The translations under genes were made by a program, and so were the position numbers. DNA of 64,000 nucleotides. It comes from Bacteroidota bacterium. GTDB lineage: Bacteria > Bacteroidota > Bacteroidia > 2-12-FULL-35-15. The stretch's first letter is position 1; the number at the start of each line of letters is the position of its first letter. Below, piece by piece: positions 14,895 to 28,964 of the stretch. The stretch covers positions 40,384 to 104,383 of the forward strand of contig JAHEYB010000001.1 of NCBI GenBank assembly GCA_023251805.1, in the 5' to 3' direction. Under the pieces are notes generated by a model. It was not told where the DNA came from and searched no databases. It saw only the letters and a program-made list of their open reading frames with translations.

Positions 14895-14928
14895 TTGTCT
14901 ATTGTTTACTTTTTTTAATTGTCTACTG
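14895..14928. repeat. Right arm of the 34-nt inverted repeat
   Basis: ttgtctattgtttactttttttaattgtctactg. It ends 6 nt before the radA ATG. Confidence 0.85.
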
Positions 14929-14933
14929 AATTA

Positions 14934-16307
14934 ATGGCTAAAACAAAAACATCTTTCTTCTGTCAAAACTGTGGAACGCAATCGGCAAAATGGATTGGAA
15001 AATGTCCTTCTTGTAATGAGTGGAATACTTATGTAGAAGAAGTTGTTTCAAAAGGAGAAGATGCAAAAACACCTGGTATTGCTAGTACAAGCACACAGCG
15101 TGCTTCCAAACCACAATTGGTTACGGAGATAAATTTAGAAGCGCATCCTCGCATCGAATTATACGATAAAGAACTTTCAAGAGTATTGGGTGGTGGATTG
15201 GTTCCAGGCTCATTAACTTTATTTGGTGGTGAACCAGGAATTGGAAAATCTACTTTGATGTTGCAAGTTGCTGTGAACATGAAGAACTTAAAAGTACTTT
15301 ATGTTTCAGGTGAAGAAAGTGAACAACAAATTCGTATGCGTGCCGAACGTATCGGAATGAACAATCCGAATTGCTACATCTTAACAGAAACATCCACGCA
15401 AAATATTTTTAAGCAAATTGAACAACTGGAACCGAATTTTGTCATCATCGATTCTATTCAAACATTACATTCTGCGCATATTGAATCATCACCAGGAAGT
15501 GTTTCGCAAATTCGTGAATGTACTGCAGAGTTGCTGCGTTATGCAAAAGAAAGCGGAACTCCTGTTTTTTTAATCGGACATATTACCAAAGACGGAAGTT
15601 TAGCGGGACCGAAAGTACTGGAACACATGGTAGACACTGTTCTACAATTTGAAGGAGATAGAAATCACGTGTATCGTTTGTTACGCACAGCAAAAAATCG
15701 TTTTGGTTCTACCAACGAATTAGGAATTTATGAAATGCAAGGAAGTGGTTTGCGCGAGGTAAGCAACCCATCCGAAATATTAATTACAGCTCGTGAAGAA
15801 TTAGTAAGTGGAGTTGCTATCGCAGCTACGATGGAAGGAATGCGTCCAATGTTGATTGAAACACAAGCGCTTGTAAGTACTGCTGCTTACGGAACACCAC
15901 AACGTTCATCAACAGGTTTTGATTTAAGAAGATTGTCGATGTTGTTAGCTGTTTTAGAAAAACGTTGCGGATTTAGATTAGGGATAAAAGATGTGTTCTT
16001 AAACATTGCCGGTGGAATAAAAGTGGAAGATCCAGGAATTGATTTAGCATTGGTGTGTGCAGTTCTTTCAAGTAATGAAGATATGCCCATCTCTCCGAAA
16101 GTTTGTTTTGCAGGCGAAGTTGGCTTGAGCGGTGAAATTCGCCCGGTGAATCGTATCGATCAACGTATTTCCGAAGCCGAAAAATTGGGCTTCGAACATA
16201 TCTTTATTTCCAAATACAATAAAAAAGGATTGGATTTAAAAAGCTACCACATCAAAATTACCATGGTTGGTAAGATAGAAGAGGTGTTCAGCTTGTTGTT
16301 TGGATAG
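14934..16307 (+). CDS. radA: DNA repair protein RadA
   Basis: N-terminal C4 zinc finger (CQNCG..CPSCNEW), Walker A GEPGIGKST, KNRFG motif, Lon-like C-terminal domain. ATG at 14934 is preferred over the TTG at 14919. Confidence 0.95.
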   Translation: MAKTKTSFFCQNCGTQSAKWIGKCPSCNEWNTYVEEVVSKGEDAKTPGIASTSTQRASKPQLVTEINLEAHPRIELYDKELSRVLGGGLVPGSLTLFGGEPGIGKSTLMLQVAVNMKNLKVLYVSGEESEQQIRMRAERIGMNNPNCYILTETSTQNIFKQIEQLEPNFVIIDSIQTLHSAHIESSPGSVSQIRECTAELLRYAKESGTPVFLIGHITKDGSLAGPKVLEHMVDTVLQFEGDRNHVYRLLRTAKNRFGSTNELGIYEMQGSGLREVSNPSEILITAREELVSGVAIAATMEGMRPMLIETQALVSTAAYGTPQRSSTGFDLRRLSMLLAVLEKRCGFRLGIKDVFLNIAGGIKVEDPGIDLALVCAVLSSNEDMPISPKVCFAGEVGLSGEIRPVNRIDQRISEAEKLGFEHIFISKYNKKGLDLKSYHIKITMVGKIEEVFSLLFG

Positions 16308-16308
16308 T

Positions 16309-16530
16309 ATTAGCCAGGACCCTCAGATCGTGGTAAGGAAATCCCAAAATATAAATTGTGCTTTAGTTTCAATAGCAATGCTAGTGATTAGCCACGACCT
16401 TCAGGTCGTGGTAAAAGTTCCCCCACCAAAATAGGGCTTTAGCCCAAACTAAACTATTCTCAGTTGTGGCTAAAGTCCACGAGTCTCATCACCATCTATT
16501 CCCCCCGAGCTAAAGCACAGAGCACCTTAC
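16309..16530. repeat. Array of short palindromic units (ttagccacgaccttcaggtcgtggtaa + gggctttagccc type)
   Basis: Two roughly 78-nt direct repeats start at about 16309 and 16387. Each has a CCACGACC..GGTCGTGG hairpin and a GCTTTAG word. Further gtggctaaagtccac and gagctaaagcac units follow. Confidence 0.55.
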
Positions 16531-16557
16531 CACTATTAATTCCCTACATTTGTATGT

Positions 16558-17463
16558 ATGCCAACACTCAACATTATATCGTGGTTTGATAAAAGCACCG
16601 TAAAACACTTACGCTTGCCTTTTTCCTATCATTTAATGCCAGTGTTTTTATTTGCATTGAGTCAGGCTGAAACAATCAACTGGCAAAACACAATTATTGC
16701 ATTTCTAATTTTACACCTGCTCATTTATCCTTCCAGTAATGGATATAATAGTTATCAAGATAAGGATGAAACAAGTATCGGAGGCTTAAAGCATCCGCCA
16801 AAAGTTTCAGAAAATCTATTTTATGCAACACTTCTTTTAGATGTTGTTGGCGTTTTACTCGCTTCTATTGTTTCTATTCATTTCTCCATTTTTGTATTGA
16901 TCTATGTCTTGATTTCTCGTGCATACAGCTATCGTAATTTGCGGTTGAAAAAACATGCTGTTATCGGTTTTTTGACGGTGTTTGTGTTTCAAGGAGCTTT
17001 TACTTACGTGATGGTGGCATCAGCACTTGCTGATTTTTCTGTAGAAAACTTTTTTACCCTCAATAACGTAATTTGTGTGAGTGTTGCTAGTTTGTTCATT
17101 GGAAGCGTTTATCCACTTACGCAGATTTATCAGCACCAAGCAGATAAAAAAGATGGAGTAACAACCATCAGTTACAAATTAGGATACACCGGAACATTTG
17201 TGTTTTCGTCTCTTATGTTCGGTGTAGCAAGTGGATTGTTGTACTACTATTTTGATAAAAAAAATGAGCTTATTAATTTAATCTTGTTTTTTATCTTGAT
17301 GTTACCAGTTGTAATCCGTTTATTTGTTTGGTTTATGAAAGTGAGGAAAGACAACTCCCATGCAAATTTTGAAAACACTATGAGTATGAATTTGATGGCT
17401 TCTTCGTGCATGAATATTTATTTTTTAACTTTAATACTGAATCATCACTTTTCTTGGTTCTAA
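16558..17463 (+). CDS. UbiA-family aromatic prenyltransferase (membrane)
   Basis: 301 aa, about 8 predicted TM helices. Asp-rich motifs NGYNSYQDKDE and QHQADKKDG sit in the expected cytoplasmic loops. Confidence 0.7.
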   Translation: MPTLNIISWFDKSTVKHLRLPFSYHLMPVFLFALSQAETINWQNTIIAFLILHLLIYPSSNGYNSYQDKDETSIGGLKHPPKVSENLFYATLLLDVVGVLLASIVSIHFSIFVLIYVLISRAYSYRNLRLKKHAVIGFLTVFVFQGAFTYVMVASALADFSVENFFTLNNVICVSVASLFIGSVYPLTQIYQHQADKKDGVTTISYKLGYTGTFVFSSLMFGVASGLLYYYFDKKNELINLILFFILMLPVVIRLFVWFMKVRKDNSHANFENTMSMNLMASSCMNIYFLTLILNHHFSWF

Positions 17464-17509
17464 GTCTTCAACTCAGCTCAGCCTGACGAATGGATATAAT
17501 AATATTAAT

Positions 17510-18592
17510 ATGAGTAAAATAATTTCCATAGGAACTGCCGTACCCGAGCATCGCACCAAACAACCTGCGATACTCGAATTTATGCAAGCAGCATATGGAA
17601 ACGATGTGGCTTCTCGTAAACTAAATGTACTGTTCAACAATAGTGGGATTAGTTCACGCTATTCGGTCATTCCGGATTTTGATAAGAGTAAAAATCAGCA
17701 CATTTTCTTTAATGGAACACCTAGCACAGCAACAATTGAAAACCGATTGGATGTATTCAAAGAAAAAGCAATTCCATTAGCGCTCGATGCAATTGAAAAT
17801 GCGTTTAAAAAAATCGATACAAATTTTGAAACGTTTGGTGTCACACATTTAATCACCGTTTCTTGTACAGGCTTGTATGCTCCTGGTTTGGATGCTGTTT
17901 TAATTGAAAAATTAAATCTTCCAAAAGATATTTTTCACACCTCAGTGAACTTTTTAGGATGTAATGCTGCTTTTCATGCCTTGAAAATCGGAGATATGAT
18001 TACAAAATCGGAGCCTGATGCAAAAGTGTTGATTGTTTGCGTGGAGCTGTGTACCTTGCATTTTCAGCCGAAAAACAATCACGACAATTTATTATCAAAT
18101 ACCATTTTTGGTGACGGAGCGGCAGCGGTTATCATGACATCTGCAGACAACAATCAAAAAGGAATTAGCATCAAAGGATTTTATTCGTTGTTGTTGGATG
18201 AAGGGAAAGAGTTGATGGGTTGGAACATTACGCCAGTAAATTTCGAAATGATTTTGGATGCGAAAATTCCAGAAATGATCGGAGATAAAGTCAACGAAAT
18301 TGTCGTAAGTGCATCAAAAAAGTTAAACATACAACCCGAATCAATATCGCAGTGGGCCATTCACCCGGGAGGAAAGAAAATTGTAGATGTGATAAAAAAC
18401 AAATTGCAACTCAGCGATGAAAAAGCAAAAGCATCTTACAAAGTATTAGATGAATTTGGAAACATGTCTTCCCCAACTATTTTATTTGTATTAAATGAGT
18501 TGATGAAAGAATCCAAAGCGGGAGATATAATTTTCTCAATCGGATTTGGCCCTGGTTTAAGTATAGAAACGGCTTTGTTTATTAATGAGTAA
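17510..18592 (+). CDS. Type III polyketide synthase (chalcone/stilbene synthase family)
   Basis: 360 aa. Catalytic triad context is present: Cys151 (NFLGCNAA), His285 (AIHPGGKKI), Asn318 (FGNMSSPT). C-terminal GFGPG loop. Confidence 0.9.
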   Translation: MSKIISIGTAVPEHRTKQPAILEFMQAAYGNDVASRKLNVLFNNSGISSRYSVIPDFDKSKNQHIFFNGTPSTATIENRLDVFKEKAIPLALDAIENAFKKIDTNFETFGVTHLITVSCTGLYAPGLDAVLIEKLNLPKDIFHTSVNFLGCNAAFHALKIGDMITKSEPDAKVLIVCVELCTLHFQPKNNHDNLLSNTIFGDGAAAVIMTSADNNQKGISIKGFYSLLLDEGKELMGWNITPVNFEMILDAKIPEMIGDKVNEIVVSASKKLNIQPESISQWAIHPGGKKIVDVIKNKLQLSDEKAKASYKVLDEFGNMSSPTILFVLNELMKESKAGDIIFSIGFGPGLSIETALFINE

Positions 18593-19325
18593 ATTCACTA
18601 ATCGCTCCTACGAACTCGAATTACTGGATGCAACCAACATCCCTAAAGAATTACTTTTTCAAAACCTTCGTGAATTAGATGTGGTAAATCGTTTGTTGGG
18701 AGGACACGCAATCACACTCTCTGGAATCAAAAAATTAGTCAAGAATAAAAATAAAACGTATCACATCATTGATATTGGTTGTGGAGGCGGAGACGCCATG
18801 ATTCAAATTGCGAAATGGGCAAAAATAAATTCCTATAAAGTAAAATTAACGGGAGTTGATATGAATGCGGATTGTATTGATTACATGAAAAATGCTTGCA
18901 AAGAGTTTTCTGAAATCGATGGAGTAGTGATGGATTATCGCGATTATTTAAAAACAAATGCGAATGTAGACATTGTGCATTGCTCCTTGTTTTGCCATCA
19001 TTTAAAAGAGGATGAGTTGATAGAGTTGTTTCAATACATGAATAAACATGCACATGTTGGATTTGTAATAAACGATTTACAGCGACAATGGTTTGCGTAT
19101 TATAGCATTTGGTTTTTAACACGTTTATTAAATGGTTCTTCTTTGGTAAAAAATGATGCGCCATTATCGGTGTTACGCGGATTTAGAAAAAACGAGTTGG
19201 AAAAATTATTGAATGAATCAGAAGTGAAAAATTATTTTTTGAGTTGGAAATGGGCATTTAGATATTTAGTGACAAAAAATTACAACACAGAGAACGCAGA
19301 GCTAAAAAGAGGTCCACAGAGTTAA
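18585..19325 (+). CDS. Class I SAM-dependent methyltransferase
   Basis: 246 aa. SAM motif I IIDIGCGGGD. Overlaps the PKS stop by 8 nt. The last ~25 codons lie in a tandemly duplicated repeat. Confidence 0.8.
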   Translation: MSKFTNRSYELELLDATNIPKELLFQNLRELDVVNRLLGGHAITLSGIKKLVKNKNKTYHIIDIGCGGGDAMIQIAKWAKINSYKVKLTGVDMNADCIDYMKNACKEFSEIDGVVMDYRDYLKTNANVDIVHCSLFCHHLKEDELIELFQYMNKHAHVGFVINDLQRQWFAYYSIWFLTRLLNGSSLVKNDAPLSVLRGFRKNELEKLLNESEVKNYFLSWKWAFRYLVTKNYNTENAELKRGPQS

Positions 19326-19514
19326 TAGAGGAAACAAATCAACTCTGTGAAACTTTGAAAACTCAGTGAACTTTGTCTTGAAAATGGGCTTTCAAATACT
19401 TGGTGACAAAAAATTACAACACAGAGAACGCAGAGCTAAAAAGAGGTCCACAGAGTTAATAGAGGAAACAAATCAACTCTGTGAACCTCTGCAAACTCGG
19501 TGTCCTCTGTTTTG
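19247..19514 (+). repeat. Two-copy tandem duplication, period 134 bp, with an 83-nt perfectly identical core
   Basis: Core gtgacaaaaaattacaacacagagaacgcagagctaaaaagaggtccacagagttaatagaggaaacaaatcaactctgtgaa lies at 19269-19351 and again at 19403-19485 (hand alignment). Copy 1 supplies the methyltransferase C-terminus and stop. Confidence 0.9.
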
Positions 19515-19530
19515 AAAATTCGGAAGTTTA

Positions 19531-20700
19531 ATGAACAACTCTAACACTTACAAAGTAAGTATTATCGGTGGCGGATTAGCCGGTTTAGCATTAGCCATAC
19601 AACTAGCTGATGCCGGACACTCTTGCGTGTTGTTCGAAAAAAATAAATATCCCTTTCACAAAGTGTGTGGAGAATATATTTCCATGGAGTCTTGGAATTT
19701 TTTAGAGCGATTGGGATTAAATTTATCGGAATTAAACCTTCCTAAAATAAATCGTTTACAAGTTTCATCCCCCTCCGGAAAATTATTAAAACACCAATTG
19801 GATCTTGGTGGCTTCGGAATCAGCAGATATTTGTTAGATTCCAAGCTTTCGGAAATTGCTAAGAATAAAGGAGTTCGCGTATTAGATGATTGCAAAGTAA
19901 ACGATGTGAAGTTTAATGAAAATCAATTTACTGTCGATTCCGCTCAAGGAATTTTTACTTCTGAACTTTGTATCGGAGCCTGGGGCAAAAAAAGTAACCT
20001 TGATACAAAATTACGGAGATTGTCCCCCGGAGTTTATCCTGAGCGGAGTCGAAGGAGAGGGGGCAGGGGGAGGGCCGGACAGAACTACGTTGGAATTAAA
20101 TACCATATCAATATTGATTTTCCAGCTGATTTAATTGAGCTTCATAACTTTAAAAACGGTTATTGCGGAATTTCTAAAATAGAAGAAGATAGATATTGTC
20201 TGTGTTATTTAACAGATTCAGAAAACCTAAAAAAGTATAATGGCGATATCAACAAAATGGAAAAAGAAGTATTGTTTCAAAATCCATTTTTGAAAGAGTA
20301 TTTTTCCAAAGCAAAATTTTTATTTGAAGAACCATTAGCCATTTCGCAAATTAAAATTGGTTATAAAAGTGCTGTAGAAAATAATATTCTAATGCTAGGC
20401 GACACTGCAGGAAATATTGCACCATTGAGTGGAAACGGAATGAGCATGGCGATGAGAAGCTCTTTTGAGCTCAATAAGTTGTTAAATAGTTACTTTGAGA
20501 ATAAAATCACGAGAGAAAAATTAGAAAATCAGTATTTGAAATTCTGGACTTCTCAATTCAAAAAAAGAGTAGAACTTTCGAAAACATTACAAAAACTTTT
20601 AAAAAATTCAGGGATGACTAATTTGGCAATTGCTTTTTTAAGAGTCGTTCCCTTTTTGAGGAATGCAGTAGTGAAATCAACACACGGAAAGCCGTTTTGA
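19531..20700 (+). CDS. FAD-dependent oxidoreductase (geranylgeranyl-reductase / aromatic hydroxylase-like flavoprotein)
   Basis: 389 aa. N-terminal dinucleotide fold VSIIGGGLAGLALAIQLADAGHSCVLFEK and a C-terminal GDTAGNIAPLSGNGMSMA motif. Contains an odd Arg/Gly-rich insert (next feature). Confidence 0.8.
   Translation: MNNSNTYKVSIIGGGLAGLALAIQLADAGHSCVLFEKNKYPFHKVCGEYISMESWNFLERLGLNLSELNLPKINRLQVSSPSGKLLKHQLDLGGFGISRYLLDSKLSEIAKNKGVRVLDDCKVNDVKFNENQFTVDSAQGIFTSELCIGAWGKKSNLDTKLRRLSPGVYPERSRRRGGRGRAGQNYVGIKYHINIDFPADLIELHNFKNGYCGISKIEEDRYCLCYLTDSENLKKYNGDINKMEKEVLFQNPFLKEYFSKAKFLFEEPLAISQIKIGYKSAVENNILMLGDTAGNIAPLSGNGMSMAMRSSFELNKLLNSYFENKITREKLENQYLKFWTSQFKKRVELSKTLQKLLKNSGMTNLAIAFLRVVPFLRNAVVKSTHGKPF
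20022..20082 (+). repeat. GC-rich repeat-family sequence inserted in frame in the flavoprotein gene
   Basis: gtcccccggagtttatcctgagcggagtcgaaggagagggggcagggggagggccggac carries the CCTGAGCGGAGTCGAAGG word otherwise seen only between genes (26329, 28896, 30839, 34761, 47467, 50237). It translates to SPGVYPERSRRRGGRGRAGQ. Confidence 0.6.
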
Positions 20701-20722
20701 TTTATTTTGTTAAATTTACCCT

Positions 20723-21511
20723 ATGAACTTAGACTTATCAGGAAAAACAGCAATGGTGTGTGGAAGTACACAAGGAATTGGAAAGGCAGCAGCAATTGAA
20801 TTAGCATTGCTTGGTGCAAATGTTGTTTTGGTTGCCCGTAACGAGGAATCATTAAAAACTTCTTTAAAAGATTTAGATGCTTCAAAAGGACAGAAGCACA
20901 ATTTCCTTGTTGCGGATTTCCAACAATCCAATCAATTAAAAGAAAAAGTAGAAAATTATATTGCAACGCAAGGAGCAATTCACATTTTGGTAAATAATAC
21001 GGGTGGACCACCAAGCGGACGAATCCAAAATGCAAAAGTGGATGAATTTTTACTAGCCTTCAACAACCATTTGGTGTGTAACCACATTTTAGTTCAAGCC
21101 ACCATCGAAGGAATGAAAGAAGCAAAATACGGTCGTGTGATAAACATTATCAGCACCTCTGTAAAAATTCCTTTGAAAAATTTAGGTGTGTCAAATACCA
21201 TTCGTGCTGCTGTTGCTAATTGGAGTAAAACATTGGCGAATGAAGTAGCATCCTATGGAATTACTGTCAACAATGTGCTTCCCGGAGCAACCTTAACTGG
21301 AAGACTAGAAAGCATCATTGAAAATAAATCAAAAAACACAGGTGAATCTTTAAACGAAATTAAAAACGAAATGGAAAGTGAAATTCCATTGGGTCGTTTT
21401 GCTGAACCAGCAGAAGTGGCGAATGCGATTGCGTTTTTAGCTTCCCCAGCAGCTTCTTACATCACTGGAATTAATGTTCCTGTGGATGGTGGAAGAACGG
21501 GGAATTTGTAG
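20723..21511 (+). CDS. Short-chain dehydrogenase/reductase (FabG-like)
   Basis: 262 aa. GSTQGIGKA cofactor motif, NNTG, and an SDR-typical C-terminus (NVLPG..). Only 22 nt after the flavoprotein gene. Confidence 0.85.
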   Translation: MNLDLSGKTAMVCGSTQGIGKAAAIELALLGANVVLVARNEESLKTSLKDLDASKGQKHNFLVADFQQSNQLKEKVENYIATQGAIHILVNNTGGPPSGRIQNAKVDEFLLAFNNHLVCNHILVQATIEGMKEAKYGRVINIISTSVKIPLKNLGVSNTIRAAVANWSKTLANEVASYGITVNNVLPGATLTGRLESIIENKSKNTGESLNEIKNEMESEIPLGRFAEPAEVANAIAFLASPAASYITGINVPVDGGRTGNL

Positions 21512-28859: not shown

Positions 28860-28964
28860 TGAGCATTCTTTCAAAAATAACTGTAACCACATTCTCCGTC
28901 ATCCTGAGTACTTCGACTTCGCTCAGTATAAACTTAGTCGAAGGAAAGGAGTATCTAAATTATT

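Follow-up and report, generated by a model that had tools for sequence, protein, structure and literature searches.

In Actinoplanes missouriensis, the agqABCD cluster is described as producing alkyl-O-dihydrogeranyl-methoxyhydroquinones in papers that cite the original work (Awakawa et al. 2011, cited in PMC7692728, PMC10896814). A related cluster in Micromonospora carries, between its methyltransferase (MT) and polyketide synthase (PKS) genes, a gene with the annotation acyl-CoA dehydrogenase (PMC7587189), so that the agq-type oxygenase may belong to another family. Two further systems lead to alkylresorcinols: hidABC from Cyanobium, which yields hierridin B, a ring-hydroxylated, O-methylated alkylresorcinol derivative (PMC10896814; PMC8086630), and a planctomycete operon of the MT-oxidoreductase-type III PKS kind, the PKSs of which make C15 and C17 alkylresorcinols (PMC10896814). 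For Bacteroidota, the original prediction knew of no characterized product of such a cluster, and we likewise found no report of one in the literature that we searched.

The locus described here comprises five co-directional open reading frames on the + strand of the window (the whole 64,000-nucleotide stretch of Bacteroidota DNA that was analyzed). They encode a putative UbiA-superfamily membrane prenyltransferase of a narrow subfamily (16558-17463, 301 aa, PF01040), a type III PKS (17510-18592, 360 aa, N- and C-terminal Chal_sti_synt domains), a class I SAM-dependent, HidA-like MT (18585-19325, 246 aa, Methyltransf_25/31), an FAD-dependent oxidoreductase that is geranylgeranyl-reductase (GGR)-like and HidB-like (19531-20700, 389 aa, FAD/Rossmann N-terminus), and an SDR-family oxidoreductase (20723-21511, 262 aa, adh_short_C2). 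The sequence bears out the predicted 8-nt overlap of the PKS and MT frames (18585-18592) and the 22-nt spacing between the flavoprotein and SDR genes (20701-20722). Tight packing also describes the UbiA-PKS junction (46 nt) but not the MT-flavoprotein junction, which is looser at 205 nt because most of it is a 134-bp tandem duplication (19238-19371 and 19372-19505, + strand; copies 90% identical) of the MT 3′ end and its downstream spacer. The MT frame remains intact despite this duplication. Ahead of the UbiA gene, a 250-nt intergenic region separates it from radA (16308-16557) and varies in length between relatives. A hairpin-forming repeat occurs in it twice (16310-16333 and 16388-16411; none expected), and a Bacteroidota -7-like box, TACATTTG, lies at 16546-16553. 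The cassette is probably transcribed from a promoter in this region. Within the window as a whole, there is no enrichment of the two-box Bacteroidota promoter pattern.

The PKS has relatives in at least 590 GTDB species. We surveyed the best 80 loci from different species, which span 42-85% PKS identity. The order UbiA-PKS-MT recurs beyond chance, in about 74 of the 80, and a flavoprotein comes next in 69; among the 76 loci that have upstream room, about 74 have UbiA directly before the PKS. The fourth position is occupied by a GGR-like flavoprotein in 49 loci and by a class A aromatic hydroxylase in 20, and three more loci end after the MT. Gene order is kept across classes of Bacteroidota, and neighboring genes are sometimes fused. 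UbiA and PKS form a single 652-aa protein in Dyadobacter sp. 32 (WP_149244224.1; six member sequences), and MT-flavoprotein fusions of 649-660 aa follow directly behind the UbiA and PKS genes (P0205 and P0219). Between radA and the SDR gene, relatives have either the entire cassette or none of it. Cultured carriers include Segetibacter koreensis DSM 18137, Cnuella takakiae, Pinibacter soli and Dyadobacter sp. 32. These comparisons show that the functional unit consists of four genes, UbiA-PKS-MT-flavoprotein (16558-20700), that are conserved in hundreds of Bacteroidota species, co-inherited, and sometimes fused.

With slightly better than even confidence, we propose that this cassette directs the synthesis of a membrane phenolic lipid, namely an alkyl-(hydro)quinone or alkylresorcinol that is both prenylated and methylated. 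The PKS would elongate a long-chain fatty acyl starter by malonyl units, and aldol condensation would close the ring to give a 5-alkylresorcinol (or alkylresorcylic acid). The flavoprotein would then add a ring hydroxyl, giving an alkyl-benzenetriol or hydroquinone, the MT would methylate the ring at oxygen or carbon, and the membrane-bound UbiA protein would place a prenyl group on the ring or on a phenolic oxygen. Scaffold, step order, chain lengths and flavoprotein chemistry are points that we can only infer. None of the four proteins has a characterized close homologue, and the PKS is at most 40% identical to any solved or trio-linked enzyme. Because the enzyme classes match those of agqABCD, a prenylated, methylated alkylresorcinol or alkylhydroquinone lipid appears to be the most reasonable product, and to this extent the original prediction of four functionally linked enzymes stands.

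The UbiA protein matches PF01040 in Pfam at 53.3 bits (cutoff 34.2, E 3.2e-14), and its AF2 model (pLDDT 82) retrieves DGGGPS, AfUbiA, UBIAD1 and ApUbiA as top Foldseek matches (TM 0.6-0.69). Together, the domain match and the predicted fold show that it belongs to the UbiA superfamily. Its subfamily is narrow, with only 792 cluster representatives among 1.84 billion at E <= 1e-3. Residues N61, N64, S65, D68, D70, R129, K131 and D196 are invariant. The UbiA-type Asp-rich loops claimed earlier are present as conserved acidic motifs, N64-S-x-x-D68-x-D70-E and Y191-Q-x-x-x-D196-x-x-D199-G, but not in the canonical form, NDxxDxxxD. The non-canonical first motif speaks against the proposed pathway, as does the existence of UbiA-fold enzymes that act as cyclases and not as aromatic prenyltransferases.

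The MT, a match to Methyltransf_25/31 and PRK06202-like at 145 bits, carries the expected GCGGG SAM motif (as IIDIGCGGGD). Its plasmid homologues adjoin type III PKS genes in Deinococcus, sphingomonads, Roseomonas, Paludisphaera, Psychrobacter and Paenibacillus, and it is homologous to the MTs of PKS-MT-FAD trios in Roseomonas, Paludisphaera and Psychrobacter. By sequence, it is of a HidA-like type that is linked with type III PKSs in many phyla. Although 84 Streptomyces plasmids have type III PKS matches, no Streptomyces plasmid matched the MT or flavoprotein of the window by tblastn, and no UbiA homologue was found on any plasmid.

The flavoprotein has the anticipated GGGLAG dinucleotide motif. 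It is GGR-like and not a typical class A hydroxylase. Its AF2 model (pLDDT 81) displays a generic PHBH/halogenase/GGR fold. In the protein, a GC-rich in-frame insertion seen in the orthologue alignment (20010-20085, + strand) lies in a variable, low-confidence loop (residues about 165-184; pLDDT <50 at residues 169-181). The insertion holds the core of a dispersed repeat, GAGCGNAGTCGAAGG, and the window has six copies of this core against none expected. An identical flavoprotein, insertion included, is on record in independent datasets.

The GGR-like character suggests another role for this enzyme on the same scaffold. Its best NCBIfam match is the geranylgeranyl reductase family TIGR02032 (94 bits), with further matches to DGGGPL reductase, BchP/ChlP and MenJ, and its homologues are labeled menaquinone-9 beta-reductase by JGI. 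Of its conserved motifs, H-K/R-V-C-G-E-Y is invariant and GDxAGxIAPLxGNGMS fits the GGR-type GDxAGxxxPxxGxGM, not the class A GDAAH type. Considering the family, the GGR-type Cys motif and the JGI names, the enzyme could reduce a prenyl or alkyl chain. With a prenyltransferase encoded in the same cassette, it might saturate the UbiA-attached prenyl group, as in the dihydrogeranyl of the Agq products, and leave the ring without further hydroxylation; the pathway would in that case end in a methylated alkylresorcinol that lacks the additional hydroxyl and bears a (partly) saturated prenyl chain. We regard this as unlikely. The TIGR02032 score falls under the family cutoff of 158.8, and GGR-like sequences include the aromatic hydroxylases QhpG (68 bits here), LodB and GoxB, all matched by this protein. 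Homologous flavoproteins with the same Cys motif also occur in PKS-MT-FAD trios that are free of a prenyltransferase, those of Roseomonas and Paludisphaera (24-26% identical, E about 1e-17) and of Psychrobacter, and ring hydroxylation in the hierridin pathway has no candidate other than the oxidoreductase. Furthermore, a canonical aromatic-ring hydroxylase (FAD_binding_3 at E 2.7e-69 plus Rng_hyd_C) occupies the flavoprotein position in the 20 loci mentioned above and in Deinococcus, and this replacement favors a hydroxylase role. The flavoprotein is thus probably a ring hydroxylase, with a reductase as the alternative. For the homologue in G. maris, experiment left the role unsettled, and the partner MT seemed to C-methylate (PMC10896814).

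The predicted catalytic triad of the PKS, Cys151/His285/Asn318, is invariant in 20 relatives and aligns with the PKS18 catalytic motifs FMGC, IHPGG and FGNM. Its closest solved relatives are Ectocarpus PKS1 (4b0n), PKS18 and Steely1, which use long-chain acyl starters. They leave room for an enzyme that yields alkylpyrones or another non-resorcinol polyketide, in the manner of PKS18 or BpsA, for later methylation, in which case the phenolic-lipid analogy would be wrong. PKS18 forms pyrones and Ectocarpus PKS1 phloroglucinol and pyrones, PKS-MT pairs such as BpsA/BpsB can make methylated pyrones, and we know of no sequence rule that reliably predicts type III PKS cyclization. Nevertheless, we judge this outcome quite improbable. 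Trp238, 47 residues before the catalytic His, is invariant and occupies the position of CHS Gly256, as placed by spacing and by an alignment that does not contain ArsB. In ArsB, a Trp at this site is reported to be indispensable for making resorcinols, and to be conserved in bacterial alkylresorcinol synthases (PMC5916927), whereas the residue is Val in PKS18 and Leu in Ectocarpus PKS1. The constant partners of the PKS, a ring-modifying flavoprotein or aromatic-ring hydroxylase and a protein of aromatic-type prenyltransferase fold, also argue for an aromatic product, and homologous trios make alkylresorcinols. The PKS is therefore best described as probably a long-chain alkylresorcinol synthase.

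The original prediction counted the SDR as a fifth gene of the cluster, where it might, for example, reduce a quinone or keto group. It is co-directional and close behind the flavoprotein gene, and it also adjoins the cassette on several metagenome contigs and in the nearest relatives (L001, L002, L003 and L005); in this genome, the two may be co-transcribed. A role in the pathway is nonetheless very doubtful. At locus L090, radA (94% identical) is followed directly by the SDR (90%), RNaseH, MarC and PurN, with the cassette missing, and five further loci with long flanks (L094, L095, L098, L100 and L101) have the SDR but no cassette. Conversely, L127 has the cassette in the same neighborhood but lacks the SDR, and in about 70 more distant cassettes no SDR adjoins. 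In relatives, the SDR is 90-93% identical and the cassette genes 75-83%, as expected for a housekeeping neighbor. The SDR is a conserved neighbor, not a component of the cassette. That the four remaining genes are unrelated and adjacent by chance has virtually no probability left: fusions of two kinds, gain or loss as a block, and a gene order that persists across classes of Bacteroidota with PKS identities of 42-85% effectively refute it.

Compared with known systems, the locus is srs-like in enzyme classes only. It shares with srsABC of Streptomyces griseus, which makes alkylresorcinols and alkylquinones, the order PKS-methyltransferase-flavoprotein and the presumed chemistry of an alkylresorcinol that is then methylated and hydroxylated. 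The srs operon has no prenyltransferase, however, and because SrsB is a membrane enzyme of the isoprenylcysteine carboxyl methyltransferase family (PMC6669644), the soluble class I Rossmann MT found here is not Srs-type. Mycobacterial polyketide quinones, as presented in work citing Anand et al. 2015 (cited in PMC10896814), are likewise membrane alkyl-benzoquinones derived from a type III PKS; by that account they are not prenylated, and they offer a precedent for such lipids acting in physiology (respiration). The agqABCD cluster also combines a type III PKS, an oxygenase or flavoprotein, a methyltransferase and a UbiA-like membrane prenyltransferase, with the same predicted logic of an alkylresorcinol that undergoes hydroxylation, methylation and prenylation. 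This likeness rests on enzyme classes, in another phylum and with another gene order (here UbiA is first). At the level of homology, the MT (E 2e-20) and the flavoprotein (E 4e-17) match a Paludisphaera operon in hid order, the flavoproteins share the motifs VCG(E/A) and GDxxxxxxPxxGEGM, and the PKSs of the hid-type trios have Trp at the Trp238 position; some cyanobacterial clusters are reported to have the PKS-MT-FAD order of this locus (hidC>hidA>hidB). Identities are low (22-33%), and the trios lack UbiA, save one cyanobacterial cluster with a prenyltransferase, whereas here UbiA is fixed and sometimes fused. Judged by these similarities, the MT and flavoprotein are hidABC-type and apparently not Srs-type, and the cassette is in its parts a hidABC-type trio joined to a dedicated UbiA.

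Five open reading frames, all on the plus strand, lie exactly where the original prediction had placed them, and Pfam together with NCBIfam assigned each to the enzyme class proposed for it: a UbiA prenyltransferase (16558-17463), a type III polyketide synthase (PKS; 17510-18592), a methyltransferase (MT; 18585-19325), a flavoprotein (19531-20700) and a short-chain oxidoreductase (SDR; 20723-21511). The 8-nt overlap of the PKS and MT genes and the 22-nt gap between flavoprotein and SDR are both present, as are the GCGGG motif of the MT and the GGGLAG motif of the flavoprotein. The UbiA and PKS genes are separated by 46 nt, and the MT and flavoprotein genes by 205 nt. Most of this latter gap results from a 134-bp tandem duplication (19238-19371 and 19372-19505; copies 90% identical), whose unit comprises the final ~29 codons of the MT gene and the spacer 3' of it. 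The second copy still reads WAFKYLVTKNYNTENAELKRGPQS followed by a stop, and the MT reading frame is intact despite the duplication. The spacer between radA (14919-16307) and the UbiA gene differs in length between relatives; here a hairpin-forming repeat, TTAGCCACGACCTTCAGGTCGTGG, occurs in it twice at a distance of 78 nt (16310-16333 and 16388-16411) and may be a REP-like element or serve as the terminator of radA. Promoter and terminator scans gave counts no higher than in shuffled sequence, a scan for the Bacteroidota -33/-7 promoter pattern found no enrichment, and an Rfam scan of the region returned zero matches.

The functional unit consists of four of these genes, not five. Using the PKS as query against one genome per GTDB species, we found relatives in at least 590 species and read the gene orders in the best 80 loci among them (PKS identity about 42-83%). 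The arrangement seen in the window, UbiA-PKS-MT-flavoprotein, recurs in 49 of the 80, and in another 20 UbiA-PKS-MT is followed by a flavoprotein of ~540 amino acids; a contig end cuts the locus after the MT gene in three, and eight have other or truncated arrangements. Within this set, the UbiA gene sits directly upstream of the PKS gene in about 74 of the 76 loci where this could be tested. Carriers range over Bacteroidales, Prolixibacteraceae, Chitinophagaceae, Sphingobacteriales, Lewinellaceae and Cytophagales and include the cultured Segetibacter koreensis (DSM 18137), Cnuella takakiae (RG1-1), Pinibacter soli (MAH-24), Pseudoflavitalea rhizosphaerae, Flavitalea and Lacihabitans (sp. CS3-21).

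Two kinds of fusion join the same parts covalently. A 652-aa protein of Dyadobacter sp. 32 (WP_149244224.1, P0365; six member sequences) combines a UbiA domain (residues 19-271) with a Chal_sti_synt domain (294-648), and in two relatives (loci L127 and L128) MT and flavoprotein are fused into proteins of 649-660 amino acids (P0205, P0219) that are encoded directly after the UbiA and PKS genes. Together with the gene order in the 80 best loci, these fusions exclude chance adjacency. The Dyadobacter fusion suggests that the PKS product is handed straight to the prenyltransferase; we know of no earlier description of a membrane-anchored type III PKS. Several UbiA homologues of ~500 amino acids (P0434, P0456, P0460, P0488) bear C-terminal extensions of ~210 amino acids without a Pfam match. 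In L128, the UbiA gene is immediately preceded by an IS110-family transposase gene (1497-2819), which fits a cassette that varies as a block and may be mobile.

The SDR, originally counted as a fifth member of the cluster, is a neighbour of the cassette. With the SDR as anchor, a scan of metagenomes returned a locus (L090) that lacks the cassette: ~43 nt separate radA (94% identical) from the SDR gene (90%), and RNase H, MarC and PurN come next; several further metagenome loci, with long flanks and SDR identities of 72-85%, likewise lack it. Conversely, L127 has UbiA, PKS and the fused MT-flavoprotein in the neighbourhood found here (RNase H, MarC, PurN, ACP, FabF and RNase III), and an aminotransferase and an AsnC regulator stand where the SDR would be. 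The unit that comes and goes between radA and the SDR is therefore the four-gene cassette. SDR and cassette adjoin each other solely in the closest relatives, whose flanking radA, RNase H, MarC and PurN genes are also shared; SDR identity in relatives is 90-93%, versus 75-83% for the cassette genes.

Both Chal_sti_synt domains (PF00195, E 2.6e-27; PF02797, E 1.3e-22) place the PKS, by its sequence, among the type III PKSs of the chalcone/stilbene synthase superfamily. Its predicted Cys151/His285/Asn318 triad holds up: the relatives keep all three residues without exception, and in an alignment with Mycobacterium tuberculosis PKS18 they fall on its catalytic motifs. The nearest solved structures, those of Ectocarpus PKS1, PKS18 and Steely1, all belong to enzymes that take long-chain acyl starters. 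One tryptophan, Trp238, is shared without exception by the window PKS, six Bacteroidota relatives and all four of the PKSs examined from hidABC-type trios (sets of MT, FAD oxidoreductase and type III PKS genes). It aligns to Gly256 of chalcone synthase and Gly250 of olivetol synthase, and the same position is occupied by Val in PKS18 and Leu in Ectocarpus PKS1. Trp238 precedes the catalytic His by 47 residues, a spacing equal to that of W230 in MMAR_2474 (PMC5916927). In ArsB, the tryptophan at position 281 is essential for resorcinol formation by aldol cyclisation, and it is conserved in characterised bacterial alkylresorcinol synthases (PMC5916927). Alignment with chalcone synthase, olivetol synthase, PKS18 and Ectocarpus PKS1 and the spacing to the His point to Trp238 as the likely equivalent of ArsB Trp-281, and a tryptophan at this reported resorcinol-determining position favours an alkylresorcinol as the predicted scaffold. 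To the Paludisphaera PKS, which serves here as a stand-in for characterised alkylresorcinol synthases, identity is 32.5%.

The UbiA protein is assigned to the UbiA superfamily by its Pfam score (PF01040, 53.3 bits against a cutoff of 34.2) and by its predicted membrane fold: the AlphaFold model has a pLDDT of 82, and the top 16 Foldseek matches all have the UbiA fold (TM 0.58-0.71). The Asp-rich loops ascribed to it do exist as conserved acidic motifs, but they lack the canonical NDxxDxxxD / DxxxD spacing. Rather, the invariant residues N64-S-x-x-D68-x-D70(-E71) and D196-x-x-D199, accompanied by a central Y123-S-x-x-x-x-R129-x-K131, appear to form a variant of it. A tblastn search of plasmids with the window UbiA gave zero matches. 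The thallusin ebo operon of Bacteroidota, which includes the UbiA-like EboC, was rejected as a relative because its gene set is unrelated.

By its sequence, the flavoprotein is no ordinary class A hydroxylase. The class A fingerprint is absent: FAD_binding_3 matches only residues 7-66, in disagreement with a class A hydroxylase of the PHBH type, and the GD motif reads GDTAGNIAPLSGNGMS in place of GDAAH...GQG, resembling geranylgeranyl reductases (GGRs) instead. Its best family is geranylgeranyl reductase TIGR02032 (94.3 bits), followed by the Trp-hydroxylating maturases QhpG, LodB and GoxB. An invariant H-K/R-V-C-G-E-Y motif and the GGR-type GD motif are common to it and the trio-linked flavoproteins. 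The AlphaFold model (pLDDT 81) does not discriminate between functions in Foldseek, with PltA, PqsL, GGR 3oz2 and 3-hydroxybenzoate 6-hydroxylase all at TM 0.6-0.75.

We nevertheless favour a ring hydroxylase as the putative function, for two reasons. First, homologues are also found in trios where there is no prenyl group for a reductase to act on. Second, an aromatic-ring hydroxylase stands at the same position elsewhere, namely in Deinococcus, where an MT homologue lies by a type III PKS but a class A monooxygenase takes the flavoprotein's place, and in the 20 loci with a ~540-aa fourth protein, which by its domains (FAD_binding_3, E 2.7e-69, and Rng_hyd_C) is assigned to the class A aromatic-ring hydroxylases. 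A serious rival is that the flavoprotein reduces the prenyl chain, echoing the dihydrogeranyl group of the alkyl-O-dihydrogeranyl-methoxyhydroquinones made by agqABCD of Actinoplanes missouriensis. The top family match and the conserved Cys motif argue for such a prenyl reductase; the score, however, falls below the TIGR02032 cutoff of 158.8, and the prenyl-free trios weigh against it as they weigh for ring hydroxylation. A halogenase of the PltA/Mpy16/CndH type was rejected, even though flavin-dependent halogenases came first in a PDB profile search (Mpy16, E 2e-18), because the halogenase WxWxIP stretch ('dtWvWqIP') aligns to an invariant 'GYCGIS'; the Lys/Arg preceding the Cys of the H-K/R-V-C-G-E-Y motif is, moreover, not strictly conserved.

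The class A version is found in Bacteroidales and Prolixibacteraceae (loci L006-L026, L032, L039 and L044), and the next gene usually encodes either another putative methyltransferase (~270 aa) or a ~150-aa membrane protein without a Pfam match. The idea that these loci dispensed with a flavoprotein since an O2-dependent step is useless in anaerobes was rejected, as the class A hydroxylase is in place. In the window flavoprotein, a GC-rich in-frame insertion (20010-20085) falls in a variable, low-confidence loop and encodes LSPGVYPERSRRRGGRGRAGQ. Within it lies GAGCGNAGTCGAAGG, the core of a short repeat that is dispersed over the window in six copies where none is expected; the other core copies lie at 28910, 30840, 30880, 34774 and 50245. 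The insertion is no assembly artefact, because the identical 389-aa protein is recorded in independent public datasets. Among plasmids, the flavoprotein has its closest homologue (44% identity) on Hymenobacter swuensis plasmid pHsw1 (L081, 5866-7050), where no PKS gene adjoins and the genes before it encode an isonitrile synthase-family protein and a TauD/TfdA dioxygenase; the flavoprotein family therefore serves another kind of natural-product locus too.

Taken as an alkylresorcinol pathway with ring hydroxylation, the cassette would proceed from a fatty acyl starter and malonyl-CoA, from which the PKS would make an alkylresorcinol; the flavoprotein would hydroxylate its ring, the MT would then methylate it, and UbiA would prenylate it at the membrane. 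It seems unlikely, but is worth stating, that the cassette is a ubiquinone-like lipid route that does without chorismate, in which a polyketide ring is hydroxylated, methylated and prenylated, the tailoring chemistries being those of ubiquinone biosynthesis. Such a lipid could provide a second, higher-potential membrane redox carrier or antioxidant in hundreds of species of the Bacteroidota, to our knowledge a menaquinone-only phylum, and in that case the UbiA-PKS fusion would work as a membrane-tethered assembly line that makes quinone head groups.

In other phyla, phenolic lipids made by type III PKSs have been linked with the cyst envelope, with tolerance of beta-lactams and with alternative respiration; we know of no function described for them in Bacteroidota. 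As the original prediction had supposed, our literature search found no characterised product of such a cluster in this phylum, and genome-mining papers class these loci as orphan 'T3PKS' clusters without a similar known cluster. The enzyme classes and the general logic were already known. New are the definition of the unit as four genes, its retention in at least 590 species with two interchangeable flavoprotein versions, the fusions, which link the membrane prenyltransferase to the PKS, and the naming of cultured carriers for a product search. Its wide conservation, its two flavoprotein versions and the fusions recommend the cassette as a target for experiments, and the lipid's identity would close a gap in the membrane biochemistry of Bacteroidota and give HidB-like flavoproteins a function.

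Searches of plasmids by tblastn showed that homologues of the MT and flavoprotein adjoin type III PKS genes in several phyla, in the order PKS-MT-FAD in Roseomonas, in the hidABC order MT-FAD-PKS in Paludisphaera, and also in Psychrobacter, sphingomonads and Paenibacillus. By blastp, the window MT matches those of Roseomonas, Psychrobacter and Paludisphaera at E 2e-28 to 2e-20 and the flavoprotein matches the FAD proteins of Roseomonas and Paludisphaera at E 7e-18 and 4e-17, with 22-30% identity to the trio proteins. The product of the hidABC operon is hierridin B, derived from an alkylresorcinol and bearing an additional ring hydroxyl and two O-methyls, and planctomycete PKSs of hid-type operons make C15/C17 alkylresorcinols (PMC10896814). 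The G. maris MT appeared to C-methylate, and the role of the flavoprotein was left unsettled (PMC10896814). Like the cassette, these trios place a homologous class I MT and FAD oxidoreductase by the PKS; unlike it, they are three genes without a prenyltransferase, whereas the cassette has UbiA in about 74 of 76 testable loci.

The likeness to srsABC of Streptomyces griseus does not extend to the MT. The window MT matches class I Rossmann families only (Methyltransf_25/31/12/11 and PRK06202 in Pfam/NCBIfam), whereas SrsB is an ICMT-family enzyme (PMC6669644). A tblastn search of Streptomyces plasmids left the window MT and flavoprotein unmatched, though 84 of these plasmids have type III PKS hits. 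The loseolamycin locus of Micromonospora endolithica (RadA, hypothetical, UbiA, MT, acyl-CoA dehydrogenase, type III PKS; PMC7587189) lies beside RadA, as the cassette does here; this is probably coincidence, because distant Bacteroidota carry the cassette without radA adjacency. In agqABCD, a type III PKS, an oxygenase, an MT and a UbiA-like prenyltransferase are clustered, and the cassette equals this set by enzyme class. Thus the agq-like four-enzyme set, without the SDR, is upheld by domains, clustering and fusions: judged by its predicted proteins, the cassette is a hid-type trio joined by a dedicated UbiA, with enzyme classes that parallel those of agqABCD.
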